Part shown: positions 20,457-62,021 of the stretch, piece after piece
Layout of the letters: every line of letters starts with the position of its first letter
Numbering within the stretch: position 1 is the first letter of the stretch
Origin: Mustelus asterias
Taxonomy: Eukaryota
Length of the DNA: 64,000 nt
Reading direction: 5' to 3'
NCBI RefSeq assembly: GCF_964213995.1
Contig: NC_135809.1
Coordinates: 91,698,001-91,762,000, forward strand
Translations under genes and position numbers: made by a program
The notes under the pieces: generated by a model
What the model was told of the DNA's origin: nothing
Database searches by the model: none
The model's input: the letters and a program-made list of their open reading frames with translations, nothing else

Positions 20457-20466
20457 ATGGCGCGAG
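20457..20466 (+). CDS. TMEM216: TMEM216 exon 1 coding part (MAR+G)
   Basis: caaaATGGCGCGAG|gtgagt in a CpG-rich promoter; strong Kozak context and donor. Confidence 0.85.
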
Positions 20467-32400: not shown

Positions 32401-34845
32401 GAAGGCCAGCATACCATTTACCTTCTTCACTATCTACTGTACCTGCATGCTTACTTTCAGTGACTTGTGTGCAAGGACACCCAGGTTTCATTGCACATTC
32501 TCTCCATGTTTGCATGGGTTTCCTGTGGGTGCTCCGGTTTCCTCCCACAGTCCAAAGATGTGTGGGTTAGGTTGATTGGACATGCTAAATTAACCCCTTA
32601 GTGTCCCGGGATGTGAAAGGTTAGCGGGATTAGTAGGGTAGCTAAGCGGGGATAGGACCAGGGTGGGATTGGTGTCGGTGCAGATTCGATGGGCCGAATG
32701 GCCTCCTTCTGCACTGTAGGGATTCTATGATCTATGAACCTCCTGTTAAATAATGGGGTTACATTAGCTACCTTTCAGTCCATGGGAACTGTTCTAGAAT
32801 CTATAGAATCTTGGAAGATGACCGCCAATGCATCCACTATTTCTAGGGCCATTTCTTTCAATACTCTAGGATGTAGATTATCAGGCCCTGGGGATTTATC
32901 AACCTTCAATCCCATCAATTTCCCCACACCATGTCCCAACTATAATAACCCCCATGAGTTCCATGGGGAAATCTCTAATTGACCTCCCTGTGGGACTTAT
33001 TGAATATGAGTTCCCTTGGTAACAGGCCTGCTCAGGTGGAACTCGTCATCTGAACGCTTTACAAGACAAACATCAGGAAGGATCTGCAGAACTATTATCC
33101 TAACTGAGATTTGTGTATGTATGCCATGGGGTAGTGGCTTTACTTTACGTTTAGCAATAAATACTGTTCCTTTCCAGTTGGGCTTCCTGAGATATTACAC
33201 CTACTCATACGGATTTCCTACAATTGCTCCCTCTCACTAAACACGGTGTTCCCAACGTTTTTGGTATGTTTGTGTGCTCCTTTGTGAAGACAGAACCAAA
33301 GTATGCATTTAGTTGGTCAGCCATTTCCTTGTTCCCCATTATAAATTTCCCTGTTTCTAATTGTAAGGGACGTATGTTTGTCTTCACCAATCTTTTATTC
33401 TTCACATACCTATAGAAGCTTTTGCAGTTGGTTTGTTTTGTTCCCCGCAAGCTTACTCTTGTACTCTATTTTCCCCTTTTTAATCATTCCCTTGGTCGTC
33501 CTTTGTTAAATTCTAAACTGCTTCCAATCCTCAGGCCTGCTGTTTTTTTCTGGCTGATTTGTATGCCTCTTCCTGATTTCCCCTGTAAATCATGGTTTGG
33601 CCACCTTTCCCGTTTTATATTTGCACTAGACAGGAATGAAGAACTTTTGTAGTTCACTCATGTGTTCTTTGAATGTTTGCCATTGCCTATCCACCATTAT
33701 CCCTTGAAGTAATATTATCTAATACATCATAGCCAACTTGCACCTCATACCATCACTCTTTTCTTTATTTAGACTCAGCACCCTAGTCTCAGAATCAACT
33801 ACGTTACTCTCCATCTTAATGAAAAATTCTATCATATTATGGTTGCTCATTCCACCCCCCCCGAAAAGGGGCCTCGCACAACTAGATTGCAGATTTCTCA
33901 TTATACAATACCCAGTCTAGGATGGTCTGTTCTTCGACTTGGTTCCTCAACATATTGGTCCAGAAATCCATCCCATGCATACTTCTGGAATTCCTTTTCT
34001 ATGGTATTGTTACTAAGTTCATTAGCCCAATCTAAATGCAGATTCAAGTCACCCATAATTATGTATGTTTCTTTATCACATGCATCTCTAATTTCCTGTT
34101 TAATGTCATCCCCAACATCACCACTACAGTATGGGGTCTATACACGACCTCACTAATGTTTTTTGCCCCTTGGTGTTTCTCAGCTGCACCCATACAGATT
34201 TCACATCATGGACATAATACCCTTACTCACTATTGCATTAATTTTCTCTTTAACCAGCAATACAAACCTTTTTGTCTGTCCTTCCTAAATACTGAATATC
34301 CCTGAATATCCTACATTCTTAAATGGCTGTGCAGTGTTTGCATTTGATTGTATAAATCTCACTCATATAAATCTTGATAAAAGTTTGAAAATAACATTGA
34401 AATTTAGAAATATTTCCTGCCAATGTGAAGCCCATCTACCTTTCTTCTTGTAAAAGTATTGCATTCTTTGCTACTACAGTCAAACAAGTTCCAGGAGTCT
34501 AGAATTGTTCATTATGATTCATAGTTTAAATTAATTAAACTTTTATCCCCACTTCTGGCAATGTTTTCTTCTCTCAGGAACATATCAAGTGTCCTTTAAA
34601 AGAAGCTGTAAAGATCTCATGATTGTATCACTCACCATGTGTTGTGGAAATTCATGCAAGGAAACACTGACTGAAAATCTAATCTAACTCTTTGCCTATG
34701 TGTTTAATGGGTCATTACCTCTAGTCCTATTGCTCTCTATTTAAAATATTGAAGTAATTTCCATGTGCAAGTATCTATGGTAGCTGAAAGACTATTCTAA
34801 TTTTTAAGTTTATTTTGTTTTCTTAGTGTAATCATCAATGACTGA
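20457..34845 (+). CDS. TMEM216: Transmembrane protein 216 (transition-zone MKS module, TMEM17/80/216 family), 144 aa; join(20457..20466,21062..21078,21430..21523,25940..26032,30238..30439,34827..34845)
   Basis: Translation MARAKPPPVLSLSSMEVLLFLNTWYYAAYFVAEILLFIYKSLLLPYTPANLILDLVMLFLYLGVEVIRIFFGSKGNLSQRKVPFSISLVLLGPSTIMAVYYMLLQTYVLRLEVIINAILLVFYVFELLLYIVGLISFSSVIIND* matches TMEM216 (LLPYP.ANL.LD, GNL.QRK, LLQTYVLRLE). It lies directly downstream of TMEM138. The last small exon is less certain. Confidence 0.93.
20555..20573 (+). repeat. (GT)n microsatellite
   Basis: gtgtgtgtgtgtgtgtgtg in TMEM216 intron 1. Confidence 0.8.
21062..21078 (+). CDS. TMEM216: TMEM216 17-nt microexon (A-K-P-P-P-V)
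   Basis: ttttcatttgcag|CAAAACCTCCTCCAGTT|gtatcctttt (U12 donor). It is required to bridge phase 1 to phase 0. Confidence 0.85.
21079..21429 (+). other. U12-type (minor spliceosome) GT-AG intron of TMEM216
   Basis: 5'ss GTATCCTTTT; branch-like TTCCTTAAT at 21409-21417, close to the AG at 21428-21429. Confidence 0.85.
21430..21523 (+). CDS. TMEM216: TMEM216 exon 3 (94 nt)
   Basis: LSLSSMEVLLFLNTWYYAAYFVAEILLFIYK; donor A|gtaagt. Confidence 0.92.
21833..22620 (-). mobile_element. Degraded CR1 fragment
   Basis: Tail cataagaaataggaacagg; ORF 21960..22280 RRNFLSQRVVSLWNSL. Confidence 0.7.
23704..24243 (+). mobile_element. CR1 3' fragment
   Basis: ORF 23694..24149 PYLRKDILALEGVQRRFTR...RTRGHSLK; tail ttcttatgttcttatg. 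Confidence 0.9.
24250..24900 (-). mobile_element. L2-like LINE fragment
   Basis: Remnant ITHVLTDLH...ILKF typical of L2 ORF2 C-terminus; purine-rich strand. Confidence 0.55.
25186..25482 (-). mobile_element. HE1-like SINE
   Basis: Reverse complement of the 6680 family, full length. Confidence 0.8.
25940..26032 (+). CDS. TMEM216: TMEM216 exon 4 (93 nt)
   Basis: SLLLPYTPANLILDLVMLFLYLGVEVIRIFFG; ag|...|gtaagt. Confidence 0.93.
26045..27460 (+). mobile_element. Degraded L2-like LINE fragment with nested tRNA-SINE
   Basis: Pyrimidine-rich strand; ccccctccttcaagtctgttgtcatcacccctctcctcaaaaaa (VPSSFK.AVITPLLKK-like). Confidence 0.55.
26413..26757 (+). mobile_element. tRNA-derived SINE sharing its 3' tail with CR1-like family B
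   Basis: A box tggcctagtgg, B box gggttcaaatccc; tail gggcaataaatgctgg..gacgcccatgtcccacgaatgaat. Second copy at ~39540-39878. Confidence 0.75.
28490..28910 (+). mobile_element. Ancient Deu-domain SINE (SacSINE1/AmnSINE1-like)
   Basis: ctctgagtcagaaggtt..gtgcagctctgatggagtg..gagatgttaa..ggtggatataaaagat..tcacattgct..; related copy at ~40310-40660. Confidence 0.55.
28950..29250 (-). mobile_element. HE1-headed SINE variant with alternative 3' tail
   Basis: Same head as HE1-like copies, but the tail is ..ctaggggattttcacagtaacttc..taagcctacttg; plus-strand copy at 38980-39240. Confidence 0.7.
30238..30439 (+). CDS. TMEM216: TMEM216 exon 5 (202 nt)
   Basis: GSKGNLSQRKVPFSISL...GLISFS; ag|...AG|gtgagt. 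Confidence 0.93.
31495..34310 (-). mobile_element. Long degraded CR1 (endonuclease-to-RT remnants) with nested SINEs
   Basis: ORFs 33205..33450 (KSFYRYVKNKR...EMADQLNAYFGSVFT) and 33719..33901 (NHNMIEF); SINE pieces at ~31725-32040 and ~32490-32735. Confidence 0.75.
34827..34845 (+). CDS. TMEM216: TMEM216 probable last coding exon (S-V-I-I-N-D-stop)
   Basis: Strong polypyrimidine acceptor tttattttgttttcttag|T GTA ATC ATC AAT GAC TGA, phase compatible. Confidence 0.6.
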
Positions 34846-41023: not shown

Positions 41024-41329
41024 TTGTTGAAAAGGAATGGCCAGTTGATTGTACATTATAGATCAAAGTTTTAGGTGGAGGCACCTATTAATTGCAGATG
41101 GAGCTTCAATTTAATGTTTCATCCGACAAGCAGCACCTTAGTGCAGCACTCCCTCAGTAGTGCACTGGAGCATCAGTGTTCACTTTTGTGCTTAGGTATA
41201 TCTGCAGCATATTGTATATTTTTTGCACATTTCCAGCCTTCCTTTTATGATGAATAGATATCTAATTGAGTCAGCAAACGGCTTTGAGCTTCCTAAAGCA
41301 CTTTCCTGACCTTTGCTAAATAAAGACAT

Positions 41330-41490
41330 TTGTCCTCCCCGCGCTTAGGGGGCGCTCTCCTGTCTGGGTGCAGTGATCCCTTGACGTGACCATTTGCGCG
41401 GAATGATGGGATACTGGAGGACTCGTGGTCGAAGAGATGGCGCTGCGAAAAGGTGGGGGAGCAGTGGACGCGTTGCTATCCCAACCAAAG
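41330..41490 (+). promoter_or_regulatory. TMEM80 promoter region with CRE-like site and X-box-like motif
   Basis: Local CpG enrichment; TGACGTGA at ~41382; GTTGCTATCCCAAC at 41472-41485 just inside intron 1. Confidence 0.5.
41437..41452 (+). CDS. TMEM80: TMEM80 exon 1 coding part (MALRK+G)
   Basis: gaagagATGGCGCTGCGAAAAG|gtgggg in a small CpG-rich region with CRE-like TGACGT upstream. Confidence 0.75.
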
Positions 41491-44400
41491 TGCTCTTGGT
41501 CGCCCTAAATAACTCTACAATAATACGATTGAGTTTAAAGATTGGGGTTTGTGAGAGATCGCAGTCGGAGCCGCACCGACTGAGAAATTTGCTTTGATTT
41601 TAAGGAGACGAACTTTGTTGCACATTGTAAAATGATTTGGTGAAAACATTTTAAAGCGCGTTACAAATGCATTGGGGATTTCACTTAATTTTTAATGGAG
41701 ACATGCAGAATAATGTTTATTTCTACCTCAAGCATCCCAATCCTATCCTAAAGATCCTATCCTTGTTGGGTCTAGTTTTACGGGTATTAATAATCCTCTT
41801 GATATCTTTGTGTTTGAGCTGAGATAGTGAGTTTCCCCCAAACTGCGGCTAGATGGTAGGCATATTTTCCCAATATCTATATTTTTGCGACAAGAATAAT
41901 AGGATAGCGATCTGGAGTGGGAATCCTGACAAATATTTCTTCACTTTTTTAATAGCCTAGGATGCTGAGAATGCAATATCTCAATTTAGATCAGCTGACT
42001 ATACAGACTGGGAATCGAATTTGGGATGTTTTGAAATTAAATGCTCAGTTACTTGCTGCCTTTTCCAGCTGCGCCATCTGTGCAATATTTTGGTTTCTTT
42101 ATTTTAATCATTAAATCTCACTTGCTGCATTATCAGCCAGCGGATGACAATACTGATATTGCAAACTTGGCATTATTGGCATATCATGGAAAAGATATTC
42201 ACTAATGCGATGACAATATCTCTCCCTCAATGTCAACAAAATGAAAGAGTTAGTCATCAACTTCAGGAAGCATAGTGGAGGATATGCCCCTCTGCATCAA
42301 TGGGGACGAAGTAGAAATGCTTGAGAGCTTCAGGTTTTTAGGTGTCCAGATCACCAACAACATGTCCTCGTTCCCCCAATGCCGACACTAGAATTAAGAA
42401 AGGCCACCAACGCCTCTACTTTCTCAGAAGACTAAGGAAATTTGGCATGTCCGCTTTGACTCTCACCAACCTTTACAGATGCATCAAAGAAAGCATTCTT
42501 TCTGGTTGTATCACAGCTTAGTATGGCTCCTGCTCTGTCCAAGACCGCAAGAAACTACAAAGGGTCGTGAATGAAGCCCAGTCCATCACTCAAACCAGCC
42601 TCCCACCCATTGACCTTTCTACATTTCCCGTTGCTTCAGAAAAGCCGCCAACATAATGAAGGACCCCATGCACCCCGGACATACTCTCTTCCACCTTCTT
42701 TCATTGGGAAAAAGGTACAAAAGTCTGAGGACATGTACCCAACCGACTCAAGAACAGCTTCTTCCCTGCTGCCATCAGACTTTTGAATGGACTTACCTTG
42801 CATTAAGTTGATCTTTCTCTACACTCTAGCTATGACTGTAATACTATATTCTGCACTCCTTCTCTATGTATAGTATGCTTTGTAGAGCGTGCAAGAAACA
42901 ATACTTTTCACTGTATACCAATACATGTGACAATAATAAATCAAATCAAAATAAACCCTATTTGCCAAACAGCTAGTATAAATTAATTTGGAAATCATCT
43001 ATATATGCAAAATCACGTTGATGAAATTGGTGTCTGGCTCAATCACCTCCAAGAAATGGTTATTGTAGAAAGATCATAGAATGGTTACAGTGCACGGGAG
43101 GAAGCCGCTTCTCTTGTCATGAATGTGCTGTCTCTCTGCAAGAGGAGCTCTGTTAGTCTTACTGCCCCACCTTTCCTCTTATTCCTGCAAACTTTTTCTC
43201 TTCAGGTAATGCCCCCTTTCAAAGATATAATAGAATCTGCCTCCATTACACCCTCAGGTAGTGCATTCCAGATCACAACCACTCACAACGTAAACAAGTT
43301 TTTCTTTAATTTGCTTGTTTTCCTCTTTAATCCAGGGGTCTATTACAGTTTGTAGTGTTTTCACTGTGGTTGTTGAGATAAATTGAAAATCCAAATCAGT
43401 CGTGGAATCTAGGGATGCATATGTGGAATTTTTTTTCCTCAGTTAGCCTATTATTAAATGCCGCTGTTTCTCATGAAAATTACCAGCCTTCTTGTCTGAT
43501 TCAAATAGGATATTTTATATTTCTATGACAATTATCAAATTGAAAAAGCTAAGTTTTAATTAAAGATTCAGTTATTGTGCTTCCAGTTTTTTTGCTAATC
43601 ACCTTAGATCATTGTCTCTCAGCCCTTCCATCAACTTAGGCTGTGTCTAGAGAGAGCATTTTGAGTTGAACAACTTTAGAGTTACGTCTAATGGTTAAAG
43701 GTTTTGCCATATGTGCTGGTAGAGGGTGAACAATTTGAGATGGTAAATTTAAAAACATAAGTACGCTGGAGAAAGTTAAAAGAGTATTAGCTTAAATTTT
43801 TTTTCCCTTTAGTATATTGGTACTAATTAATATTAAGTATTTTGTTTACATTAGTATTATTAATTCTCTGTTTTGCTTTACAGTGAAATCTGCTGTTGTT
43901 GTATCCTTTGGAATAAAATGAAGTGTGCCACCCAGTTTCAGGAGCTGACGTCTTGCAGTCCATAAGAACATAAGAAATAGGAGCAGGAGTAGGCCATCTG
44001 GCCCTTCGAGCCTGCCCCGCCATTCAACAAGATCATGGCTGATCTGAAGCGAATCAGTTCCACTTACCTGCCTGCTCCCCATAACCCCTAATTCCCTTAT
44101 CGATCAGAAAACTATCTACCCGTGATTTAAACATATTCAACGAGGAAGCCTCCACCACTTCAATGGGCAGAGAATTCCAGAGATTCACTACCCTCTGAGA
44201 GAAGAAGTTCCCCCTCAACTCTGTTCTGAACCGGCCCCCCCTTATTTTGAGGCTGTGCCCTCTAGTTCTGGTTTCCCTTCTAAGTGGAAAGAATCTCTCC
44301 ACCTCTACCCTATCCAGCCCCTTCATTATCTTATATGTCTCTATAAGATCACCCCTCATCCTTCTAAACTCCAACGAGTACAGACCCAATCTGTTTAATC

Positions 44401-47400
44401 TCTCCTCATAAGCCACACCCCTCATCTCCGGTATCAACCTGGTGAACCTTCTCTGCACTCCCTCCAAGGCCAATATATCCTTTCGCAAATAAGGGGACCA
44501 AAACTGCACACAGTACTCCAGTTGCGGCCTCACCAGTGCCTTGTACAGTTGTAGCAAGACCTCCCTGCTTTTATATTCTATCCCCCTCGCGATAAAGGCC
44601 AACATTCCATTCGCCTTCTTGATCACCTGCTGCACCTGCAGACTGAGTTTTTGCGATTCGTGCACAAGGATCCCCAGGTCCTTCTGCACAGTCGCACGAT
44701 GTAATTTTTCTCCATTTAAATAATATTCCAATTTACTATTATTTCTTCCAAAGTGGATAACCTCACATTTGCTAACGTTATATTCCATCTGCCAGATCCT
44801 CGCCCACTCGCTCAGCCTATCCAAATCTCTCTGCAGACTTTCCGCGTCCTCCACGCAATTCGCTTTCCCACTCACCTTCGTGTCATCAACAAACTTGAAT
44901 ACCCTACATTCAGTCCCCTCCTCCAGATCATCTATGTAAATGGTAAACAATTGAGGCCCCAGCACCGATCCCTGCGGCACGCCACTGGTCACCAACTGCC
45001 AACCAGAAAAGCACCCATTTATCCCAACTCTCTGCTTCCTGTTAGATAGCCAATCCCCAATCCACGCCAATACCTTACCCCTAACTCCGTGTACCCCAAT
45101 CTTCTGCAGCAACCTTTTGTGAGGCACCTTATCGAACGCCTTCTGGAAATCTAAAAACACCACATCCACCGGTTCCCCTCTGTCAACCGCACTAGTGACA
45201 TCTTCATAAAAGTCCAGTAGATTCGTCAAACACAAGCCCAGCTCAGCTCTCTTAAAGGCATGAATTCTAATACAAAATGTATTCCACAATGTACCAACGG
45301 CAGTTAACATTTGGGGTTGGTGTGGTGATTGAGGAGTTTCCTTGTGAGTCTGTGAAGGAGAAGTTCTTCTTCAGAGAAAATGCATTCTGCCTTCCAATCT
45401 GCCATTTTGTGTTTTTGGTTTCACACATTTTTAAGTAATTCAAAAACATTTCTGTCAGTTATTGCTAACTCTTGCATTTTATGATTTGTTCCTGGGAGGT
45501 GAGCCTCTCTGGCAAGGTTAGCATTCCTAACTCCCCTTGAGTCAGTGATGGTGAACCAGTACAATCCATCTGGTCTAGATACATTCACAGTGCTATTAGA
45601 GAGGGAGATATAAGATTTTGACTTGGTGGCTTTCAAGAAACAGTGACATAGTTCCAAAGTGATGTGTGGCATGGAGAGAAACTTGTAGTTGGTAATGTTC
45701 CCATGTGTCTGCTGCCCTTGTTCCTCTAGGTGGTAGAAATGGAAGGTTTGGAAGGGTGTTGAAGGAGCCTTGGTGAGTGCATCTTGTAGATGGTATGTAC
45801 TGCTGCCACTATGAGCCAGTAGTGGAGAGTTAACGTTTAAAGTAGTAGGTGGGTATTGATCAAGTGGGATGTTTTGTCCTGGATGATGCGAGTTTCTTCA
45901 GTGTTGTTGGAGAGCTGCACTCATCAAGGCACTTGGTGAATATTCTATCATATTCCCTGAATTGTGCCCTGTCAATGATGGATAGGCTTTGTTGAATCAG
46001 GTGAGTATGCACTGCAGAATTCTTAGCCTCTGATCTCCTGTTGTTGCCATAGCATTTATATGGCTGGTCTAGTTAAGTTTTTGGTTAAAGATGATCCCCA
46101 GGATGTTGATGGTGGGGTATTCAGCTATGATAATTCTGTTGGGTCCAAAGCTAATGGAATAACTCCAACATCTTGCTCAAATAGATTATTTTTATTTGTG
46201 AGCAACTGCAGTTTGATTCTCTTCAAAATCAATCTTTTTGCACATTCCTTTTGTTATCTAACTATTCTGCAGCCTGCTATTTGCTTGAAATTTGGGAATG
46301 GCCTTGAGATATTTACTTAAAAGAAGTATATAAATACAAATTATTGATCCTTTGTGGTGAGTGGCAGCAGATTGTTTAACTATGGAGAGTCAAACTCAAT
46401 GCTGTCCTTTCCAGCAGTGGGCATTGGATGTGTTGGCAGTGGGAATCGTGGCTGATTTTTGCCGCCCAAAAGAGGAAAACGATCAATTGTATCAGCACTG
46501 CTGCCAACTGAGTTGATAACATTTAACAAAGCACAGACCCGGACCTATTTGCTGCACGTAGTGGCCACATTAGAAGATGTATTAAATTAAGTCACCTCTC
46601 AGAATTTTAAAAAAAAATCTGGTATTAAGTATTAAGCAGGACATCTTTTCAATGCGCCTCAATAGATTGATTGAGCAATCCCCTCTCTGGGAATCAGCAT
46701 TTTCTATTTTAAATCCCATTTTCAGGAATGAGAAAATGAATTCTCAGCTGTTTTAGACTAAACTTGAGAGGTAAGTATGAGATTTTATCTTTGTAACTTA
46801 GTTGCAAAAACAAAAAGAATCAGTGACTGGTGGTTTCCATCTGTTTCCTGCATGGAACAAGGGCTGCTTACAGTACTTATTGTAAGAAGTCTCACAACAC
46901 CAGGTTAAAGTCCAACAGGTTTATTTGGTAACAAAAGCCACTAGCTTTCGGAGCGCTGCCCCTTCGTCAGGTGAGTGGGAGTTCTGTTCACAAACAGGGC
47001 ATATAAAGACACAAACTCAATTTACAAGATAATGGTTGGAATGCGAGTTTTTACAGGTAATCAAGTCTTAAAGGTACAGACAATGTGAGTGGAGAGAGCG
47101 TTAAGCACAGGTTAAAGAGATGTGTATTGTCTCCAGACAGGACAGTTAGTGAGATTTTGCAAGCCCAGGCAAGTCGTGGGGTTTAAGATAGTGTGACATG
47201 AACCCAAGATCCTGGTTGAGGCAGTCCTCATGTGTGCGGAACTTGGCTATCAGTCTCTGCTCAGCGACTCTGCGTTGTCGTGTGTTATGACAACGCAGAG
47301 TCGCTGAGCAGAGACTGATAGCCAAGTTCCGCAAACATGATGATGGCCTCAACCGGGATCTTGGGTTCATGTCACACTATCTTAAACCCCACGACTTGCC

Positions 47401-50400
47401 TGGGCTTGCAAAATCTCACTAACTGTCCTGTCTGGAGACAATACACATCTCTTTAATCTGTGCTTACCGCTCTCTCCACTCACATTGTCTGCACCTTTAA
47501 GACTTGATTACCTGTAAAGACTCGCATTCCAACCATTATTTTGTAAATTGAGTTTGTGTCTTTATATGCCCTGTTTGTGAACTGAAATCCCACTCACCTG
47601 ACGAAGGAGCAGCGAGCGCTCCGAAAGCTAGTGGCTTTTGCTACCATATAAACCTGTTGGACTTTAACCTGCTGTTGTGAGACTTCTTACTGTGTTTAAC
47701 CCAGTCCAACGCTGGCATCTCCACATCATTACAGTACTTACAGTAGTTTGTAATTTTTAGCAAGTTGGGTTGCCATGTTTTACCAATTTTCTTAATTCAT
47801 TTTTGCTTAACATGAGACATTTCCAAGGCCAGCATTTATTGCCCATTTCTAGTTGTCTTTAAGAAGGTGGTGATAGGCTGCCTTCTTGACCCATTGCTGT
47901 CTATTTGGTGAAGGTACTCCTAATTGCTACTAGGTAGGGGAGCTCTGTGATTTTGATCTAGGAATCTAGAAAATCCAGCCAGTTCAGAATATATACTGTC
48001 AGCGGAACAGAGACAGAGTTTACGGTAGAATCATGGCTTTACCTGACTTCTGGCTTTTGCCTTTTGGTGTTTAAAAAGTCAGCAGAAGTCCAAAGACATC
48101 AATAACTGAACTCTGCAGTGGATGATTTATTTTGCAATGTACTGTAAAATCATAAATCGCTTTTTGCACTCACATTTATGATTTCAGTGCATTGAATGTG
48201 GAGCAGAAATGTTTTCCCTTGTTATAAAACACACAAATTAGTTGGAAAAAGTGGACTTCTGATTTAAAAATTAGACTTTTGTTATCCGGTTTCTCTCTTC
48301 ATAATTTCCAGATACCAGGTCAGAAATCCTGGATGAAAACTCAGTACACTTGGTCCTGTAAAATTGTCTAAGATAATATTTGTAGTTTTCATTGCAGCAA
48401 TATTCCTTAACCACATCACAACAGCTCTCCTCCATCCCTCTACAGATAGTTTATTATTTCAACATGTTTTATTATTCATTTTATTTTCTTGCTACTTTGC
48501 TAATGGTTATCTACAAAAGTAAGTTTTACATTTGTAACTGTTTTGCTATAACTATTTATAATCATAGTATTTAAAGCATTGAGTCAAGGAATTATTTTCT
48601 TTTCACGTTTTAGGTCAAGCTTTCAGTTTTCCAGATGGTAATCTGGCCTTGGATCTGATTCTTCTGATTCTCATGGTAATACTGGAAGTGATAAGGCTAT
48701 ATCTTGGTAAGATGTTGCTTTAAATTATGTTGTATCACCCAATTGATGCTCTGTGGTATTACTACTGGTAGCCTGGAATTTGAGCACGGTTTTGATATTT
48801 AGTTGTAATTGTGTTCAGCCCCACTTGTCTTTTCAAAGGCTAGTGCTCAGAAATCTGTGGTCATTTTGGTGCTAATTGTTACTGTTGAAGTTTTCCTCGA
48901 TTTGTTCCTTCCCTTAGGAAGAGTATAGGTAGGTTATCTATGTTTGAAAGACAGCAGGATTGAATTTCTTTTTTTACACTTTCTTAAATAATAAATTGTT
49001 AATTTATAAAGATTACTTTCTGCCAATTGGGTACGAGTTTGAAACATGTTTTTTGTGTGATAGTGATTGCAAATCTGATGCTTTAAGGTGTGATAGATAT
49101 GTACTAAATATAATACCAGATGTTATGACATCCATGAAGGACACAGGGAGTCATCAATAGATCTCCCCATTGGCTTTGTGAAGTATGAACTTCTTTATTG
49201 AGGAAATCCAATGGGAAATGAGCTGCGGGTGATTAATATCTATTGCTCTAACCCGGACTGTTGTTGTAGGCCCCCAGGTACAGACTTGCTTGTTGTAAGT
49301 CGGGGGTGCGACTCTTCTTTTGGTTTCCAAGAAGGGTTTCTGGTGACGGGGAACTGGCCTTGGCTGAATTACTACACCAGATATACTATTACGTTATCCA
49401 TTGCTTTTCTAACTAGTGGCGTCATGCCATGTAACACAGTGGATCATCAGGAATGGATAAATCAATTTGTGTTTTTGTTCCATGTTGCTTTGGGATTTTT
49501 GCTCCTGTTTTGGGGATCAAGTTCCATATCGTTGCCCAATTTTCTGTGGAAACTGTAAATCAGTGGTTTTGATCATCATTATACATGTCTTCACTAAGTA
49601 CACAATTTTGTTTTACACAAAATAAACTTTATTTCAGGTAGCTAGTTTTATTATTGTAAATTCAAACAGGAAAACAATCAAGAATTTAACACCCAACAGT
49701 AAAAAGAGATTTGTCTTTTTCAAAAAAATCTTAATTGAATTCTCAAAAGTATACTTTTAAATTAATCTTTTGTGAAGTTGTTGTACATTTGATTGCTTGA
49801 TTGCACAATATCAGCAGGTAGTGAAATATCCAGGTTCCTTGACATGAGTGTATCTCCATTTCTAATTTCTGCCAACTTATTGATTCAACAAGGGAAGTAT
49901 TCGAGGCATAATTCACTTCAGTACAGGTGACCTTGGAAAGGGAAAAGTTCATGCTCCTGATCACTATCTAATAACTCCTGCTGGAATGGGTGGCTTTGTA
50001 GATATTGCCTTGATAGATTAATAGCTCTTTTTTTTTTATTCTTATGTGAAATAGTGCCCTCCTGTCAGGCCACTTGTGTATGTATGTATATATGTACAAC
50101 TGGATTAAACTAATTTCACTTTTTTACCAGATTCCATGTTGTACAGCTTCTATTCTGGGAGGATATCACAGTCTGGCAACAAGATGGGATACCGATTCCC
50201 TAGCCAAGCTAATTTGGGTTGGAAAAGCTTCCAGCTAACCAACTGAGTGTTCTTTCTGTGAGAATAGGTTTCAAAATCTGGTTTTAGAGATGGATAGATT
50301 GACCAAAGGTGGCTGCCTCAGCAGGTATTATTGAGAGACTGGGATGTGCAGCCATGCCTGAGAGTGTCTGGAGTATTTAGAGATTCTTGAGCTGCTCACG

Positions 50401-53082
50401 AATTTGCTTGCAACATCAAAGACGAAGGCCAAGCCACTGGCGAATGGCACTACAGTCCCAAGTGATTGGAGGTCGCAGAAAGCTATTGTTTCAGAGCAAG
50501 GAATGAGTTGCCCAGTGAAGACTTTGGAGAGTTTATCATGTTTTTGAAAAAGTTGCTATTTATTGCAATTTTGGAGAATTTCAAGAGAACATGTTACAAG
50601 ACAGATTTCATTTGGTTTAAAAAGTCAACACATTCACAGTAAGTTGATGACATTGCCAAAGTTAATTTTCAACATAGCTTGCCAGACAGCTTTGTCATGG
50701 ACATGGCAGAATGTGAGAGAAGTTAGAGTTAACAACAGTCAGTCATCCTCTGAAGTAAATAAGCTGCAGTTAAATAAGCAGAAGGCCTCAGTGACAGCAG
50801 TTTTTAAAAAAAATTATTCAAGGGATATAGGCTTTGCTGGCTAGGCCAGCATTTATTGCCCATCCTTATTTCCCTTTGAGAAAGTGGTGGTGAGTTGCTT
50901 TCATGAACTGCTGCAGTCCTGTGGTGTAGCTACATCCAAAATGCTGTTAGGGAGGGAGTTTGTGGAAGGGGTGTGAATGAAGCGGGTTGCTTGGTCCAGG
51001 AGGGTGTCAAACAGGCTGTTAACCACACCATTTTTGATAAAGTATCATGAAAAGATTTTGAATTTTTTTACTTCTTTAGAAGCATGTGAAAACCAAGAAC
51101 AAGTAATTGATCTGTCAAGCCAATATCTATAAAGCCACCTATCGCAGCAGGAGTCATTAGATAGTGATCTGGAGCAGGCATATTTCTCTTTCGTAGCTCA
51201 CCTGTGCTGAGATGAATTGTGCTCCAAATACGAAACCAGCTAAGTTGGCACAGACATAGCTTGAACCGGAGATCTTCTGGTCTATATGGCTTAGTGCTAC
51301 ATTAAGCTATATGGCTGCTTTGGGTTTGCATACAATAAAATTGTATGTGCATGTGACTTTAAATGTAATGGGTCTCCAAAGTTGAGGTGTTGAAGCTCTG
51401 TTCTTTCCCTAGGTTTAAAAGGTAACCTGACGGAAGAGGCGGTTCCAATTGTTACTAGCCTGGTCCTGACAATTGGAAATCTGTTGCTTTGTCTGTACTT
51501 CTTGTTCTGGCAGACCTATGTGTTGAAAGCAGATGTAATAATCAATGCAATCCTCCTGGTAACCTATGGACTGGAGGGGATATTGGATATAATTGTCATT
51601 TCAGCTTTTGCCAGGTAATTTGATCAATTGGATCTAATTTTAAGTTCTGAAGTCAATGACACTAATACAGCATTGATAGCTGCTAACTGTCACCTTTTTT
51701 TCCCACAAGGACACATCATTTAGGAGTTTAATGTACCTGTTGGAATACTGTAACTGGCTCAATTAGTAAAGGGAGTGTGTGATTGAACCAAATAGATTAG
51801 GTTCAATCCCTCTCATATGTTTATTTCAGTAAGGACCTTATGAGTGTTAAAAGTTGACATCAGTCAGGGTTTCCATTCCTGATCACAATCCTCTGATTCC
51901 TGGTGGAACAGTACATGTGGCTTAATATTGTACAAACATTTTTGGAATACAGTTTTTTTTCATGCTTTAGGTGAGGGTGGCAAATAGAAAGCTTCCATTT
52001 TGAGCTTTCAATTTAAGATACAGAGTTGTTACAGAAAAATACCATCAAAACTGTATCATACACAATCCAAGGTTGCACATGGAATGGTAAGGTGTAATAC
52101 TTCCAAGTTGTGGATAAGATGGTTAGATGCAGAGCAAATCTTCCTGAATGATCCATGGAACATTTCTAGGTTGGCTTTTAATGGGTTAGATACAAAATAA
52201 AACCTCGATTCCAGGATAGAAATGTGCTTCAGCCTCAGAAGTAAGTACCCCTCTTGTAAAAAATTCCCATTTCTCACACCAACAATCTATTGGAGTAAAA
52301 GTACCAATTTGTACTGAATTATATGTAGTTGTGTGTTCTGGACAAAAATTTACCAGGACTTGGATTGTGACCCAAACTCAATTTACACAGAACCCTAAAA
52401 AGCATTTGGACATCAGAGGAACTTATTCTTTCTTGACTGGGTTACAACTCAATGATATAGAGATGCTGGCATTGGACTGGGGTAAGCACAGTAAGAAGTC
52501 TCACAACACCAGGTTAAAGTCCAACAGGTTTATTTGGTAGCACAAGCTTTCGGAGCGCTGCTCCTTCATCAGGTGAGTCAACTCACCTGATGAAGGAGCA
52601 GTGCTCTGAAAACTTGTGCTACCAAATAAACCTGTTGGACTTTAACCTGGTGTTGTGAGACTTCTTACTGTGTTTACAACTCAATCCCAGAGAGTAACTA
52701 CTTAGTCTGACTCACTGATTCATCTTGTACTCAATTAGCCAACAATTCCTGTCTTGGATGAGCTACTAGATGATTATCCTAGGAGTTAGCAGAAATTAGC
52801 AAAAGAAACATTGGATAGATTTTGAAACGTAACTGTGGAAGTGGTATAGTGTTAGATGCTATTCTTTCAGTGCTGGATGTGGAGTTAAATCCAGCTCAGA
52901 TATATAAAATGGCTTTCACATATACTCTTATTTGTGGATAATGACTTCACTTTAAGCAAGCGGGAAGTATTCTTCAATGTTTTGAACTTTACTGGACTAT
53001 CTTTTCAATTTGATTTCAGTAGTGCTGTTCAAAGACATTATGGTATATCTTATCTTGTATTTTGCCCAGGTTCTACGCATGA
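41437..53082 (+). CDS. TMEM80: Transmembrane protein 80 (TMEM216 paralogue), ~144 aa; join(41437..41452,43884..43900,48425..48518,48614..48706,51413..51614,53070..53082); alternative end by read-through stop at 51618
   Basis: Translation MALRKVKSAVVLSSIPLQIVYYFNMFYYSFYFLATLLMVIYKSQAFSFPDGNLALDLILLILMVILEVIRLYLGLKGNLTEEAVPIVTSLVLTIGNLLLCLYFLFWQTYVLKADVIINAILLVTYGLEGILDIIVISAFARFYA*. Motifs LSS.PLQ, YFLATLLM..YKSQ.FS.P, RLYLG..GNLTE and WQ..VL.AD match TMEM80 rather than TMEM216. Confidence 0.88.
42215..42950 (+). mobile_element. Rex1/Babar-like LINE 3' fragment
   Basis: Encodes remnants [21 protein letters not shown] and [29 protein letters not shown]; tail caataataaatcaaatcaaa. Confidence 0.72.
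43884..43900 (+). CDS. TMEM80: TMEM80 17-nt microexon (V-K-S-A-V-V)
   Basis: ttttgctttacag|TGAAATCTGCTGTTGTT|gtatcctttg (U12 donor); phase 1 to phase 0. Confidence 0.85.
43961..45232 (-). mobile_element. Young 5'-truncated CR1 LINE with uninterrupted RT C-terminal ORF
   Basis: ORF 44054..45310(-) contains [22 protein letters not shown](V)DDTK and [10 protein letters not shown]; 3' tail (TTCTTATG)n; CpGs retained. Confidence 0.93.
45480..46135 (-). mobile_element. CR1-like family B 3' fragment
   Basis: Homologous to 8740-9400 and 58400-59058. Confidence 0.7.
46880..47728. mobile_element. Palindromic Penelope-like insertion (two ~400-bp inverted arms) with 12-bp target-site duplication
   Basis: Arms are mirrored around ~47285; TTACAGTACTTA flanks at 46868-46879 and 47729-47740. 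Confidence 0.85.
47594..47634 (+). ncRNA. Minimal hammerhead ribozyme (Penelope)
   Basis: tcac-CTGACGA-A-GGAGC..GCTCC-GAAA-GCTA-gtgg; mirror copy on the minus strand at 46938-46974. Confidence 0.72.
48425..48518 (+). CDS. TMEM80: TMEM80 exon 3 (94 nt)
   Basis: LSSIPLQIVYYFNMFYYSFYFLATLLMVIYK; A|gtaagt. Confidence 0.92.
48614..48706 (+). CDS. TMEM80: TMEM80 exon 4 (93 nt)
   Basis: SQAFSFPDGNLALDLILLILMVILEVIRLYLG; tag|...|gtaaga. Confidence 0.92.
51413..51614 (+). CDS. TMEM80: TMEM80 exon 5 (202 nt; reads AGG TAA to 51618 if unspliced)
   Basis: GLKGNLTEEAVP...IIVISAFA; tag|...AG|gtaatt. Confidence 0.92.
52454..52673. mobile_element. Miniature palindromic Penelope-derived element with two back-to-back hammerhead motifs
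   Basis: ~90-bp inverted arms centred at ~52580; flanking direct repeat TTACAACTCAAT at 52442-52453 and 52674-52685; hammerheads at 52541-52576(-) and 52583-52618(+). Confidence 0.8.
53070..53082 (+). CDS. TMEM80: TMEM80 candidate last coding exon (R-F-Y-A-stop)
   Basis: tcttgtattttgcccag|G TTC TAC GCA TGA; downstream AATAAA at 53572-53577. Confidence 0.5.
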
Positions 53083-55537
53083 TGTGACTGGAATGACGCA
53101 TCATTTGTTTAGGCTACCAAGACATTCCCACCATCTGGAGCTATTTGCAGTTTGCGTCAATAGGATCAAAACTACATTTTTTATATTTAAATTTTATTTT
53201 TGTAGGGGATTTTTGGGTAAGTTTCTCCTATGTATTTCTGACCTCCGTTTTATCTGATACCTGCAGCCAGGAGGATCCACTGATTGCCCGCATGTTGCTG
53301 GTATTGTTCCCCGCACTAAGATATACCAGACACTATCTTGCACTCAATATTCTTCAGATTGGGAGCTGGGCTGCGGCAGTGGCGTTGAACCGGCATCCAC
53401 CCAAGCTTTGTGCTCTGCAGTGAATGATGTCATTTTGTCGTCAATTCACTGAGATCATGATTATTCTTAATTTCAGCTCATTTGGAGGGAAATGGAATTT
53501 TCTGAAGAGAATACAAGTTCCAAGGATGTTTCAGATCATAAGTTGTAACAGTTTTATAATATTTGTATCACAATAAAAGCATTTATACCGAATAGAAATC
53601 TCGATTAAATTCTGGTTGTTCTATAGTAAGATATTCTTTTTCCAGCTATTAACCAATTGGTGGGGTGCAGTAGTGGGTACATGGAAATTTTGTGCTAAGT
53701 CCCACTTAAACTGTGGACAAACATCAAGTGAATTGACTTAACAGTCAATGATCACTGTCCACTGTCAACTTTTATAGACAGGCACTTTTTCTGCTCCATA
53801 TTTCAGTTATGCAGTTCTGTTGGTGACAAAGACCTTTTGGGATCTTGAACAGGTCTGTGTAAGCACCTGGACACACATCTGGCAGGCTATTCAACTACAG
53901 CAAGTCCCATTTTAGTAGTCCTGTTTGCTTTAAAATTGTGCTGCTTTTAGGGCCAGTAGCCTCGATTTACATCTTAAATTGTGAATTAGTATCATTATTC
54001 ATCATCTTTGCACACCATTTTAAAGGCCATTTTAAAGCCAGTGTAATGCTTTAGAGATGTGCTTAAAATATTGCTGAAGAGGTCAAACATTACTGACTCA
54101 TGGTGCCAGACCAAATTGGGAGAATCTTCATTTGGGAAGACACCGAAACATGTGGAAGAGAGGTCAAGATGGCAGTGAGAATGCAAAAACCTCCAAACAA
54201 CTCCTTTAACTTACCATCCAAGAAACAGCTGACCTACATGTAGCAGTTTGCAGATCCCACATTAAACTTCGAAGTTATCTCTGAACCCAATGAACCAAAG
54301 TCAAGTCATCCCCAAACCCAAGATATTGCCTAAGAAGAAAGAGAGACTGATCAATTTAGAGGACTTGAATAATTATTTGAAGAGAACCAATGTGAAAGAG
54401 TATTGGGAATAAGCAGGAGAATGGCACTAAATGCTTATTTGGAGAGCTGGTGCACCTTATCACTGAGTGTTAATTGAATTTATATAGTATTTTACTAGGA
54501 ATAAACAGTACTACACATTTGTTGTGCAGTTTTTCCAATTTGTACATGGGGTGAGAATTGGCCAAAATAAATTAATTTCGGTTTTAACATCGATTCCTGT
54601 GGGAACCTTTGATTTACTTGAAGTTATTTCATTTAAAAGTCACAATTTTCAGGAATGCAACGACTTTAATTGAAGACCTACTGTTTGATCAACTTGATCC
54701 TTTGTTCTCTGAATTTTAGAAGTGATCAGGTGCAAGAGATCTGAACACTAGATTGCCTTGTTCACCCTGATTAAACTTAAAAAGTACTTGGGTATGCACT
54801 TGAAGTATCGTAACCCACAATCTTACAGACCAAGTTATGGAAAGTAGGATGAGACTGGATAGCTTTTTATTGGCTAGAACAGATAATGATGAACTGAATG
54901 ACCTCCCTTCATGCTGTAAATTTATATAAGTAATTTTTGAATTGGTGGCAGAGGAAGGAGGTAGTGTACGATTACAAATCATGGTCCCTTGCTGAGATCA
55001 GCTAACTCACTTAGGTTGACCTCGAATAACTCAGTCCAATACCATCCACATGCTACACCTAACTATTGAGCTATTTTGGACAGGTGGAGTGGGATTAGGT
55101 GGATTGTTCTTAGAGAGCTGACATGGACTTGACAGGCCGAATGGCCTTCTCTTGTGCTGTAATTATTCTATGATTGTATAAAAGAGATCAGGCCATCTTT
55201 CAGAAAACCGGCTTATTTATTTTCAAACGATCAGCTTCAATCTTTTTTGTATAATGCTATAAATAGTTCAATTTTGGCCAAAGAATTTGACAGAAGTCAA
55301 TCAGTTCCGAAACAAAACTACTGATATTTCAGGGGCTGGAACTTTGTTGAATAAGATCCCGTTGAGCTCATATATAAACAGGTAGTGACTCACACCTCAA
55401 AAGTAGGCAGTGATACCGCACTCATTTTTAAAGGTATTAAACTTGTTAATATTTAAACTTCTGAATTTGTTTATTTTAACTGCAGATCTTAAGTAAAACA
55501 ATTATCAGCAGTCCATTTATGAGCAAGTAATCCGATA

Positions 55538-55668
55538 TTAATTTTTGTTCTCAAAGAGATAATCGAGAGCAGGCTGCCCTATCCTTTGCTCCATGTTGCG
55601 ATTTTTGGTGAACTCCTTCAGCAAGGTCATTACTTCATTATCAAATTCTGGAGGAGTTGGCTTGGTTT
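55538..55668 (-). CDS. SDHAF2: SDHAF2 exon 4
   Basis: cag|AA ACC AAG CCA...AAA AAT TAA on the minus strand. Confidence 0.93.
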
Positions 55669-58600
55669 CTGTTCAGGTGAAGATGATAAAAAACAAAGGT
55701 CACAAAAATCACAACCTATATAGTGTGTCTAAGCTCCAGATTGACTATGAGACTGCAGATTGATCCCAATACCCTCTTCAACCCACAAACAGCACAATTA
55801 CTACCTAATGATTAAATTTTGAAAAATTTAAATTGGATGATGGGTGAATGGCAGATTTCCTCCCTTTTCTGATGGCTCGTCTTTTGGGTTACAACTTCAT
55901 AATATTCAACAGCCCTTCAGCATGAGAAAATGTCTTATATTTCATATGTGAATTTAGACAATGGGTATCTACTTGACTATTAAGGATATTACAGGCAAGC
56001 TGACTGAGGACCATCAACATCTTCAGGAATTATTGGATAATAATCAAATGTAAATTGCTAATACAAGGACCTGGAAAAAAGTTCTTAAGCTGCTGGTTCA
56101 AGCACAAAATAGTGCAATTGTAAAGGCTGCTTTCCTCCCTCAACTTCCTTAATGCTGACTTTTGTGTAAAACCCAAAGGGAACAGTTTTATCTACAGCAT
56201 TGCCTGAGTTAGCTAATCTGAACTGGTATAGTGGTAAAGCAATCTGCTTCAGTGCCAGGAAGGAGTTTTGCTCCTTGGCACTATGTCATGTTTCTAAGGG
56301 TGCATATCAACAGCGATATCCTTAAATAGTTTTTCCCTCCTGAGGACTGAGACAATGAGACTAATTATACTGCTCTCATTTATGCCTCAGTTATCTGCTA
56401 ACAGTGTAATACTGACAGATGTTCCTGTTCTCTAAAGGTTAGTACCACAACATGCCACACTTATCCATTGAATCATTGGAGGTTGGGAATTACTTTTTTG
56501 GATGAAGTTAAAACATAAAAGCAATTCATAAATCAACTATTTACTATACAATAACTAATTACTTTCTAATTTTGAGGTTGGGGAATAAGGCAAGCGAAGA
56601 GGGAGCATTGTTTGTCTGTACATACCTGTTATCCAGTAGTAAATGTCCCAATCATTGGTTGGTTGATTTATCAGTTTATCATACAAGCTCAGTTGCTTCG
56701 CTGTCATTTTATTTAGATATTGTTTGGCAAAGAAACTGAAATAAGAAAGTTATCAAGCATAACCCATTGTAATCAAAACATTGTTTTTAATTTCTAGCTC
56801 TAGTGTATGAGAGTCATTAGTTATCGACCTGTAATGTTAACTCTGTTTCTCGCCATAGATGTTGCCTGACCTGCTGAATATTTCTAGCATTTTCTGTTTT
56901 TATCTTGCATTTAGGCAGTTTTGTTCTTATTCAATGTCAGATATATGTGATTAATTTTATTTTGTCAGCAGTAGGGACTATTTTGTATTTTGGGTATTAG
57001 CACCAGTACTAGTAGTAAGTATTCTGATGAATGGTCGGGACTTGAAACATTAATTGTTTCTCCACAGTTGCCAGACCTGCTGAGTATCTCCATTATTTTC
57101 TGTTTTTATATTAAATATTCTCAAGTTAGGTGAAACGCTGCAGAGGTCCCCAGCATCACAGATACCAGTCTTCACACTCCATGTGATATCAAGAAATGGC
57201 TGAAGGCGCGGTATACTACAAAGGCTATGGGCCCTGACAATATTACGGCAATAGTACTGAAGACTTGTGCTCCTGAACTTGCCAAGCCCCTAGCCAAGCT
57301 GTTCCAGTATGGCTGCAACGTTGTCATCTACCCGACAATGTGGAAATTTATGTATGTCCGGTGCACAAAAAGCAGGACAAATCCAGCCTGGCCAATTATC
57401 ACCCCATCAGTCTACTTTCAATCATTAAAGTGATGAAAGGGGTCAAAAGTGCTATCAAGCAGCATTTGCTTAACAATAATATACTCATTGATGCTTAGGT
57501 TGGATCCTGACAGGGCCACTCAGTTCCTGACCTCATGACAGCCTTGGTTCAAACATGAATAAAACAGCTGAACTCCAGAGGTAAGGTAAGAGTGACTGTC
57601 CTTAACATCAAGGCAGCATTTGACTGAGTGTGCCATCAACGAGCCCTAGCAAGACTACAGTCAATGATTGCAGGGGGAAATCTCTCTGTTGGCTGGAGTC
57701 ATACTCAATGCAAAGAAAAATGGTTGTGGATGTTGGAAGTCAATCATCTCAGTCTCAGAATATTTTCTGTTTTTATATTAAATATTCTCAAGTTAGGTGA
57801 AACGCTGCATAGGTCCCCAGCATCACAGATCTTCAGCTGCTTCATTAATGATCTTTCTTCCATCATAAGGTCAGAAGTGGGGATGTTCGCTGATGATTTT
57901 ACAATGTTCAACCCTATTCATGATGATTCAGATATTGAAGCAGCCCATCTGCCCATGGGGTGGCATGGTAGCGCAGTGGTTAGCACTGCTGCTTCACAGC
58001 TCCAGGGTCCCGGGTTCGATTCCCGGCTCGGGTCACTGTCTGTGTGGAGTTTGCACATTCTCCTCGTGTCTGCGTGGGTTTCCTCCCACAGTCCAAAGAT
58101 GTGCAGGTTAGGTTGATTGGCCAGGTTAAAAAATTGCCCCTTAGAGTCCTAAGATGCGTAGGTTAGAGGGATTAGCGGGTAAATATGTGGGGGTAGGGCC
58201 TCGGTGGGATTGTGGTCGGTGCAGACTCGATGGGCCGAATGGCCTCCTTCTGCACTGTAGGGTTTCTATGATCTCCTAATACATTCAGGCCAGTACAATA
58301 TCCAGGCTTGGACAGACAATTGGCAAGTAACATTTGCACCATGCAAGTGCCAGGCAATGGCCATCTCAAACAAGAGAAAATCTCACAATCACCCACTTGA
58401 CAATCAATAGCATTATCATTGCTAAATCGCACACTATCAACATCCTGGGGGTTACCATCGACTGGAAATTGAACTGGACTTGCCATATGAATACTGTGGC
58501 TAAAAGAGCAGGTCAGAGGCTAGGAATCCTGTGGGGAGTAACTCACCTCCTGACTCTCAAGTCTGTCCACCATCTACAGGGCACAAGTCAGTTGTATGAT

Positions 58601-61600: not shown

Positions 61601-62021
61601 GCAAAAGGGATCAAAGGATACAAGGGGAAGGTGGGATCAGGCTATGATCATATTGAATGGTGGGAAAGTCCAAAGGGTCTACTCCTGCTCCTATTTTCCA
61701 TGTTATTGAAGGCACAATTAAAGTGGGACTGCACAGTTTTTTCCCTTTCATATTACGTATAGGAACAGGAGCCCAAAGGCAGGGGAATGGCACTAAGTGA
61801 TGATACTCATTTTGGGATCCAGTGCAAATGCGATGGGCCGAATGGCCTCCTCCTGTGCAATAACAATTCTGTGATTTTTGACTTTAACCCTTTTAGCCCC
61901 AGTATGGTTCTGGTGAATCTGAGCAGCGCCTTTCCGAGGCCTGAATGCATATCCTTGTTGAAAATTAAACCCAGCTCCCCGGCTGTCTGCCGCTTTTACT
62001 CACATTCCGCACCACCGACAT
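55538..62021 (-). CDS. SDHAF2: Succinate dehydrogenase assembly factor 2, mitochondrial, 159 aa; complement(join(55538..55668,56626..56735,59216..59436,62004..62021))
   Basis: [17 protein letters not shown]...[114 protein letters not shown]; Sdh5/SdhE RKRGMLE motif; canonical splice sites. Confidence 0.96.
56626..56735 (-). CDS. SDHAF2: SDHAF2 exon 3 (110 nt)
   Basis: FFAKQYL...[10 protein letters not shown]; ttcag|...G|gtatgt. Confidence 0.94.
57135..59058 (+). mobile_element. CR1-like family B LINE fragment with inserted SINE
   Basis: [26 protein letters not shown] and FINDL..GMFADD; 3' end aataaatgctggcc..atgaatgaatgaaaaaaa. Confidence 0.82.
57958..58270 (+). mobile_element. HE1-like SINE inserted in LINE
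   Basis: A/B boxes ggtagcgcagtgg / gggttcgattccc; tail actgtagggtttctatg. Confidence 0.8.
59216..59436 (-). CDS. SDHAF2: SDHAF2 exon 2 (221 nt)
   Basis: Matches ORF 59212..59442; ttgcag|GTT CTG...CTG AG|gtaaaa. Confidence 0.95.
60150..61705 (+). mobile_element. CR1 fragment split by a Rex1/Babar-like insertion
   Basis: gtaaggctacacctggaat|...|tgtgcagttttggtctccc resumes after the insertion. Confidence 0.7.
60361..61135 (-). mobile_element. Rex1/Babar-like LINE 3' fragment
   Basis: Tail tttgatttgatttattgtcacatg; ORF 60827..61084 [21 protein letters not shown]...[12 protein letters not shown]. Confidence 0.7.
62004..62021 (-). CDS. SDHAF2: SDHAF2 exon 1 coding part (MSVVRN)
   Basis: gaagATGTCGGTGGTGCGGAAT|gtgagt on the minus strand; phase 0 fits exon 2. 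Confidence 0.8.

Follow-up and report, generated by a model that had tools for sequence, protein, structure and literature searches.

A 17-nucleotide exon and a minor intron at one site in shark TMEM80 and TMEM216, probably inherited from a single bilaterian ancestor

The window analysed here is a stretch of 64,000 nucleotides (nt) of Mustelus asterias contig NC_135809.1 (assembly GCF_964213995.1, positions 91,698,001 to 91,762,000) that carries the paralogous genes TMEM216 and TMEM80. TMEM216 is a Joubert and Meckel syndrome gene encoding a transition-zone protein. An earlier note on this DNA had claimed that in TMEM80 a U2-type acceptor leads into an exon of only 17 nt, followed by the donor and branch site of a U12-type intron, and that TMEM216 is built the same way. 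This raises the question of whether the two genes share a true minor intron, how old such an intron would be, and whether its presence in both genes means that they are regulated together. We find the 17-nt exon and a U12-type intron with full signals at the same phase-0 site in both shark genes, and we estimate at about 90% the probability that they form a constitutive module descended from a single bilaterian TMEM216/80 ancestor, the intron being removed by the minor spliceosome.

The relevant parts of TMEM80, read from the sequence, are:

41437 to 41452, plus strand: coding part of exon 1, from the ATG to a phase-1 U2-type donor; its frame agrees with shark TMEM80 records
41453 to 43883, plus strand: intron 1, U2-type GT-AG, phase 1, with a pyrimidine-rich acceptor
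43884 to 43900, plus strand: 17-nt microexon ending in GTT; its peptide is found in shark proteins
43901 to 48424, plus strand: intron 2, U12-type GT-AG, phase 0, 4524 nt, repeat-rich, beginning GTATCCTTTG
43901 to 43909, plus strand: U12 5′ splice site GTATCCTTT of intron 2
48403 to 48411, plus strand: U12 branch site TTCCTTAAC, with the branch A predicted by the established consensus at 48410, −15 from the exon
48425 to 48518, plus strand: exon 3, 94 nt, encoding the first hydrophobic segment and ending in phase 1
48425 to 48449, plus strand: candidate U2-like cryptic acceptors in exon 3, namely a pyrimidine tract, a CAG ending at 48445 (+21) and a TAG ending at 48449 (+25, in frame with exon 1)
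48614 to 48706, plus strand: exon 4, 93 nt
51413 to 51614, plus strand: exon 5, 202 nt, joined to the last exon in a contig of run X1
53070 to 53592, plus strand: last exon, with the stop at 53080-53082 and AATAAA at 53572; its end is approximate

The corresponding parts of TMEM216 are:

20457 to 20466, plus strand: coding part of exon 1, with a phase-1 U2-type donor
21062 to 21078, plus strand: 17-nt microexon; its peptide is found in shark proteins
21079 to 21429, plus strand: U12-type GT-AG intron, phase 0, 351 nt, with donor GTATCCTTT at 21079
21409 to 21417, plus strand: branch site TTCCTTAAT, followed by a short T-rich tract; the AG ends at 21429
21430 to 21523, plus strand: exon 3, 94 nt
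25940 to 26032, plus strand: exon 4, 93 nt
30238 to 30439, plus strand: exon 5, 202 nt
34827 to 34845, plus strand: coding part of the last exon, to the stop

Every element that the earlier note had described in TMEM80 is present, including the U2 acceptor, the exon ending in GTT, the U12 donor and the branch site without a pyrimidine tract. Both introns begin with RTATCCTT (at 43901 and 21079) and contain TTCCTTRAY about 10–20 nt before the 3′ splice site, which places the predicted branch A at −15 in TMEM80 and −14 in TMEM216. Neither has an extended polypyrimidine tract: in TMEM80, 11 nt separate the branch site from the first AG, which ends at 48424, and the longest pyrimidine run is 2. 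TMEM216 has a short T5 run past its branch site and TMEM80 has none, a difference that the earlier note left unstated. The homologous architecture in TMEM216 was otherwise confirmed, down to the 94-, 93- and 202-nt exons that follow in both genes. The intron position is conserved in the paralogue, in three invertebrate loci (L016, L018 and L019) and in human and mouse, where the site follows a Val codon. Joined by coordinates, the TMEM80 exons give an open frame of 144 amino acids (aa), 132 residues of which are identical to a catshark TMEM80 record.

Microexons are exons of 3–27 nt, and both 17-nt exons belong to this class, with AG and GT at their flanks and a peptide conserved in proteins. 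A regulated neural microexon of the SRRM4 type was considered and rejected. Such exons are of frame-preserving length and are included tissue-specifically; 17 is not a multiple of 3, and skipping this exon alone shifts the frame.

Could the signals be chance matches in a long, repeat-rich intron? Loose U12-like donors are common (18 in the window), and the branch pattern by itself shows no enrichment (4 matches against 1.87 expected; 14 of 100 shuffles). The donor GTATCCTTT, on the other hand, occurs 4 times on the two strands against 0.69 expected, a count reached in none of 100 shuffles, although two of the four matches lie on the minus strand and are unrelated to TMEM80 or TMEM216. The composite pattern YAG-N17-GTATCCTT, which was picked post hoc with the data already in view, is found twice on the plus strand, exactly at the two microexons, where 200 Markov simulations give 0.045 expected per 64 kilobases (kb). 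The exact 17-nt spacing recurs in two paralogues and three invertebrate loci, the frame is open, the peptide appears in database proteins, and the orthologous intron is catalogued in human and mouse. We give an accidental origin practically no credence, as it is already refuted by conservation.

Database proteins suggest indirectly that the junction may be used. Of 15 cartilaginous-fish TMEM80 proteins, 13 have the microexon peptide, six residues directly before an L-S-S/L motif; the other two begin at a Met within exon 3. The same six-residue segment is found in 24 of 30 cartilaginous-fish TMEM216 proteins, the remaining six being retention, cryptic-site or exon-4-joining models. One protein (P0008), which comes from a 1123-nt Logan contig and clusters with skate TMEM80, runs from the microexon peptide straight into exon 3 in one frame throughout, which implies that the transcript of this skate-like relative was spliced. 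In an RNA-like contig of a relative (contig 4 of run X1), exon 5 is joined to the last exon, the sole TMEM80 join seen. A further 220 nt at its 5′ side fit 93 + 94 + 17 + 16 but fit other structures too, and were not counted.

Published catalogues place the counterparts of these introns in the minor class. The human TMEM80 intron (chr11:698889-700141) is listed as U12 or minor-like in the supplements of PMC6717393, PMC9992838 and PMC11347168, and the first of these gives the human and mouse 5′ site as GTG/GTATCCTGC, together with U12 branch sites. According to the same tables, the mouse Tmem80 intron has a retention index of 0.33–0.81 in 9 of the 11 tissues for which a value is given, and use of cryptic 5′ sites passes the filter in 10 of 11 (PMC6717393). 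Retention of the human intron, expressed as percent spliced in, rises from 11.1 to 24.9 in Taybi-Linder syndrome (TALS) cells and from 0.8 to 13.9 in one Joubert-like patient, and the supplements that report this class human TMEM216, TMEM17 and TMEM138 as non-U12 (PMC9992838). For TMEM216, the zebrafish intron 14:25040329-25040417 is called “minor” and is responsive in both rnpc3 mutants (Table S6 of PMC11347168). The minor spliceosome removes these counterparts in human, mouse and zebrafish, and it is likely that the shark introns depend on it as well; the sensitivity proposed in the earlier note is thus borne out by papers on other species only.

Some details differ between lineages. Human TMEM80 and mouse Tmem80 (chr7:141332930-141333637) are orthologous to the shark gene and carry a GT-AG U12 intron after a Val codon (GTG/GTATCC), as the shark gene does, but the shark donor is the full consensus GTATCCTTT where the mammalian one reads GTATCCTGC, and the shark intron is far longer (4524 nt, against 1253 in human and 708 in mouse). 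The microexon segment has six residues in shark TMEM80 and seven in mammals (about 20 nt, as inferred from P0149 and P0224). The zebrafish intron lies in the TMEM216 orthologue, as in the shark, and a teleost model from Caranx (P0126) reads through a V-S donor right past the microexon peptide, which fits the same intron site; the teleost TMEM216 segment has five residues (an inferred 14 nt or so) rather than the six of the shark.

Both paralogues are therefore already minor-intron genes in catalogues, but in different species. The shark TMEM80 intron is of the correct class and is the orthologue of a catalogued intron, and in itself it is ordinary; what the shark adds is history, with the ancestral module in both paralogues at one locus. 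In a full-text literature search we found no paper on the homology of the TMEM80 and TMEM216 introns or on the history of the module, although MIDB, IAOD, intronIC tables and bioRxiv supplements may list shark or mollusc introns. Neither gene was found in the supplements of PMC7507305, PMC10639083, PMC7367187 and PMC2831892, and a 2026 preprint on u4atac and cilia names tmem216 in three passages, solely as the target of a morpholino and as an epistasis control (10.64898/2026.08.20.745718).

A different reading is that the intron is a hybrid, with much of the output made by the major spliceosome at cryptic sites (the +21 and +25 acceptors and intronic donors) and only partial U12 dependence. 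Exon 3 of TMEM80 does contain a strong U2-like tract and CAG 21 nt inside its start, the position at which turtle and kiwi TMEM80 models begin this exon, and joining exon 1 to the +25 TAG gives a computed in-frame product of 130 aa. The minor-like class of the mammalian introns, the heavy use of cryptic donors in mouse (both from the supplements cited above) and the T-rich tract past the shark TMEM216 branch site point the same way. Against this, the shark donor and branch site match the U12 consensus perfectly, and position −1 is not a G. Use of the +21 site would remove seven codons that are conserved from molluscs to mammals and kept in 13 of the 15 shark TMEM80 proteins, while the +25 TAG relies on codons that vary among sharks. 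We regard a hybrid intron as quite improbable.

To place the module in time, we compared it with its relatives. In a tree of 38 chosen proteins, shark TMEM80 groups with coelacanth and tetrapod TMEM80 (100/100), jawed-vertebrate TMEM216 forms a separate clade (97/93), the lamprey gene falls weakly next to TMEM216 (93/79), and the invertebrate proteins lie outside. The window protein is represented in this tree by relatives 81–92% identical to it and is not itself a row. A passage of PMC4794247 calls Tmem80 tetrapod-specific and has it arise in tetrapods, which is contradicted by the position of shark TMEM80 in one clade with tetrapod TMEM80.

Invertebrate loci were obtained by scanning metagenome contigs with a mollusc-centred alignment. 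This yielded ten loci, seven with introns and three without (L012-L014). In all seven intron-bearing loci an AG stands at the same phase-0 site 5′ of a 94-nt exon. A sequence resembling a branch site lies shortly before it; L016 and L021 have TCCTTAAC there, and the remaining five have near matches. In three of them (L016, L018 and L019) the full arrangement of AG, 17-nt exon and GTATCCTTT is found, with introns of 546, 506 and 164 nt, and exons of 93 and 202 nt come next where the contigs extend. Over the 202-nt exon, L016 shares 89% and 85% identity with clam proteins, and L015-L018 score 85–90% against named bivalves and 29–58% against vertebrates; L019-L021 are placed less firmly. The occurrence of the same phase-0 site in mollusc-like single-copy genes means that the module far predates the TMEM216/TMEM80 duplication, in agreement with the suggestion in the earlier note, and by its distribution the module would be at least as old as the protostome-deuterostome split, these mollusc-like contigs reaching back to early bilaterians.

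The intronless TMEM216-like genes (L012:1534-1974, L013:2905-3345 and L014:176-601) are transcripts, retrocopies or intron-free genes; the L012 and L013 proteins resemble those of the intron-bearing L019 and L020 and are possibly retrocopies or transcripts. In L019 the intron past the 93-nt exon begins with GC at 6125 (GC-AG).

TMEM17, to which the earlier note had also pointed, was tried as a third carrier and rejected. In the single copy found in the shark genome, the homologous site itself is not interrupted by an intron; a U2 acceptor lies 11 nt upstream of it, and 40 kb contain no U12 donor. This gene (G000:C13:98358360-98359645; L005 and L003) has exons of 104 and 114 nt with U2 sites only. 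The intron past its first hydrophobic segment has phase 0 and, when the Lys codons are aligned, is displaced by one base from the phase-1 intron of TMEM80 and TMEM216.

TMEM80 kept the module as far as mammals, and the history of TMEM216 appears to differ. Among TMEM216 proteins with a normal start, six residues lie between exon 1 and L-S-S in 7 of 7 from coelacanth, lungfish, reedfish, caecilians and frog, and three in 5 of 5 from amniotes. Caecilian models translate the intron end as four codons, F-L-T and a final Gln, with the spacing seen in shark models; these, with the teleost V-S read-through, point to an intron at this site in both groups. The amniote proteins, three residues shorter, and the non-U12 entry for human TMEM216 together suggest that the minor intron was lost from TMEM216 on the amniote stem. 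An imprecise deletion may have fused the exons, the mammalian G-K-R being the first three caecilian residues, or the microexon may have been lost and a new U2 acceptor adopted 8 nt inside the old intron; bearing on the second route, turtle, snake and bird TMEM216 carry, immediately ahead of the motif, a Gln that may stem from the old CAG. Amniote TMEM216 would offer a ciliopathy gene in which the likely loss of a minor intron can be dated, and a test case for imprecise deletion against acceptor slide. It also calls for caution with fish models of RNU4ATAC disease, as zebrafish tmem216 is a listed minor-intron gene and human TMEM216 is not.

Several points weigh against an ancient, minor-spliceosome-dependent module. 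Junction reads for 41452>43884 and 43900>48425 were not seen in this species in the contigs of four runs compared with 41300-53700, a comparison swamped by repeats; the runs listed as carrying this sequence include none on record as RNA, which counts neither for nor against. Most of the shark database proteins are predicted models, and the entries under the name Mustelus asterias may derive from the same assembly and so are not independent. Among the invertebrate loci, L015 has no matching U12 donor in 2.6 kb upstream, L017, L020 and L021 have none in the less than 450 nt available, and L017 and L018 look like one species. The tables of PMC11347168 class the human and mouse TMEM80 introns as “minor-like” and show a response in just 1 of 9 data sets from human and 1 of 6 from mouse, and the position of the zebrafish tmem216 intron was not read from DNA. 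The likely amniote loss is drawn from protein lengths and one human table, a proxy, and segment length varies in intron-keeping lineages too, teleost TMEM216 having five residues and mammalian TMEM80 seven.

How would such a module behave? By established mechanism, the microexon would be defined jointly by U2AF and U2 at the acceptor before it and by U11/U12 at the donor, 17 nt further on; U12 would pair with TTCCTTAAC, and use of the first AG would give the normal 144-aa TMEM80 protein. Slow or failed minor splicing would lead to intron retention, to skipping of the microexon alone, or to skipping of both flanking exons by U2-type sites only. PMC8034651 describes such bridging by U11-59K and U2AF for a minor intron between major introns, with the same expected failures (retention and flanking-exon skipping), and states that in 60% of the events that increase when the minor spliceosome is inhibited, one flanking exon or both are skipped. 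The aberrant isoforms described there carry premature stops, whereas the double skip in the shark genes preserves the frame, and the exon bridged in these genes has just 17 nt.

Computed products support one part of the earlier argument, in which skipping of the microexon shifts the frame and so gates both genes. In TMEM80, retention of the U12 intron brings a stop after 17 codons, skipping the microexon alone to 48425 or 48446 gives frameshifted products of 45 and 38 aa, and skipping exon 3 alone also shifts the frame; in TMEM216 retention and lone microexon skipping likewise end in early stops. The argument is incomplete, however. Loss of the microexon and exon 3 together removes 111 nt and leaves an in-frame product, of 107 aa in TMEM80, and the same holds for TMEM216, because the 111-nt module sits between two phase-1 U2 sites; the frame argument therefore covers only one of several routes. 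This double skip needs only the major spliceosome. Its product in TMEM80 would be missing residues 6-42 and with them the first hydrophobic segment; it is therefore unlikely to be a normal protein, but would be expected to escape stop-triggered decay. Inside the TMEM216 U12 intron, 30 nt 5′ of exon 3 (21400-21429), there is an in-frame ATG that a database isoform (P0025) uses; a transcript retaining this intron could give a near full-length protein if ribosomes reach the internal ATG.

These outcomes bear on the proposal that the shared module is a selected gate, tuning TMEM216 and TMEM80 jointly through minor-spliceosome activity. In its favour are the early stops just described, the maintenance of the module since the bilaterian ancestor, the heavy retention and cryptic 5′ sites of mouse Tmem80, and the response of both paralogues to minor-spliceosome loss, albeit in different species, in the supplements cited above; rate-limiting control by minor introns is itself a published model (PMC8329584). 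However, a module older than the duplication needs no selection for co-regulation to be shared, the joint skip stays in frame, and any two minor-intron genes respond together in trans, clustered or not. Human TMEM216 and TMEM138 are listed as non-U12, shark TMEM17 has no intron at the site, and in one patient table total TMEM80 mRNA is not lower (log2 fold change +0.32; PMC9992838). Covariation data for the TMEM216 and TMEM80 introns were not found. We consider a selected joint gate unlikely. A dedicated co-regulation layer for the cluster is argued against by how old the module is, by its likely disappearance from amniote TMEM216 and by the absence of any U12 intron listed for human TMEM138, and shared inheritance explains the sharing. 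Tandem duplication would have copied the module into both genes, and each would be as sensitive to minor-spliceosome activity as any minor-intron gene, making a cluster-specific switch unnecessary.

A more tentative extension, with the odds against it, is that the 111-nt module, older than the protostome-deuterostome split, serves as a dose control for the TMEM216/80 protein of the transition zone, with an in-frame bypass isoform that has no first membrane segment; by its loss amniote TMEM216 would have escaped control by the minor spliceosome, to which TMEM80 stayed subject. If so, tmem216 would be a direct target in zebrafish u4atac and rnpc3 ciliopathy models, a role it could not have in patients, and some of the fish phenotype would not carry over to humans.

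The two genes belong to a plus-strand series that meets SDHAF2 tail to tail:

4890 to 5060, plus strand: Pfam match of TMEM138, first in the series
20457 to 34845, plus strand: TMEM216, second in the series
41437 to about 53592, plus strand: TMEM80, third in the series
59436-59264, 56750-56635 and from 55668, minus strand: SDHAF2, with exons near the first two positions and the last exon from the third, tail to tail with TMEM80

Records named Mustelus asterias match the TMEM216 exon at 30240-30437 with 100% identity, and catshark TMEM80 matches the TMEM80 exon at 51415-51612 with 91%. The TMEM80 protein contains the Transmemb_17 domain (PF09799); comparison with solved structures gave no match. 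Venkatesh and colleagues reportedly described in 2013 a Tmem138-Tmem216-Tmem80 tandem cluster in the elephant shark, with linkage rather than intron class as the topic, and the window has the same three genes head to tail. Catshark (P0028) and echidna (P0078) database models join TMEM138 to TMEM216 and are read-through transcripts or annotation errors. Beyond SDHAF2, a gene start on the plus strand near 62390, which we take from its N-terminal motif to be CPSF6/7-like, gives the order TMEM80(+), SDHAF2(−), CPSF6/7-like(+) (55500-62450). If the human order is, as we assume, TMEM216, CPSF7(−), SDHAF2(+), this would mean a local inversion.

Contigs of runs X13, X16 and X17 span TMEM80 introns 4-5 unspliced from about 49606 upwards and fall off below, and a minus-strand AATAAA lies at 49633-49628, near this drop-off. 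An SDHAF2 3′ untranslated region of about 6 kb (49606-55668, minus strand), antisense over TMEM80 exons 5 and 6, is likely, the contigs being without strand or ends and the runs not recorded as RNA. At the other end of TMEM80, upstream ATGs at 41403 and 41406 lie one base off the main frame and open an overlapping frame of 62 codons (41403-41436), whereas catshark and electric-ray records (P0001, P0002, P0011 and P0012) have a similar upstream start in frame; the shark ATGs represent either a lineage-specific inhibitory upstream open reading frame or an assembly error. Finally, motifs resembling the X-box consensus of RFX factors lie at 20438-20451, just 5′ of the TMEM216 ATG, and at 41472-41485, at the start of TMEM80 intron 1; they are candidates for a more ordinary route to the co-regulation of ciliary genes.

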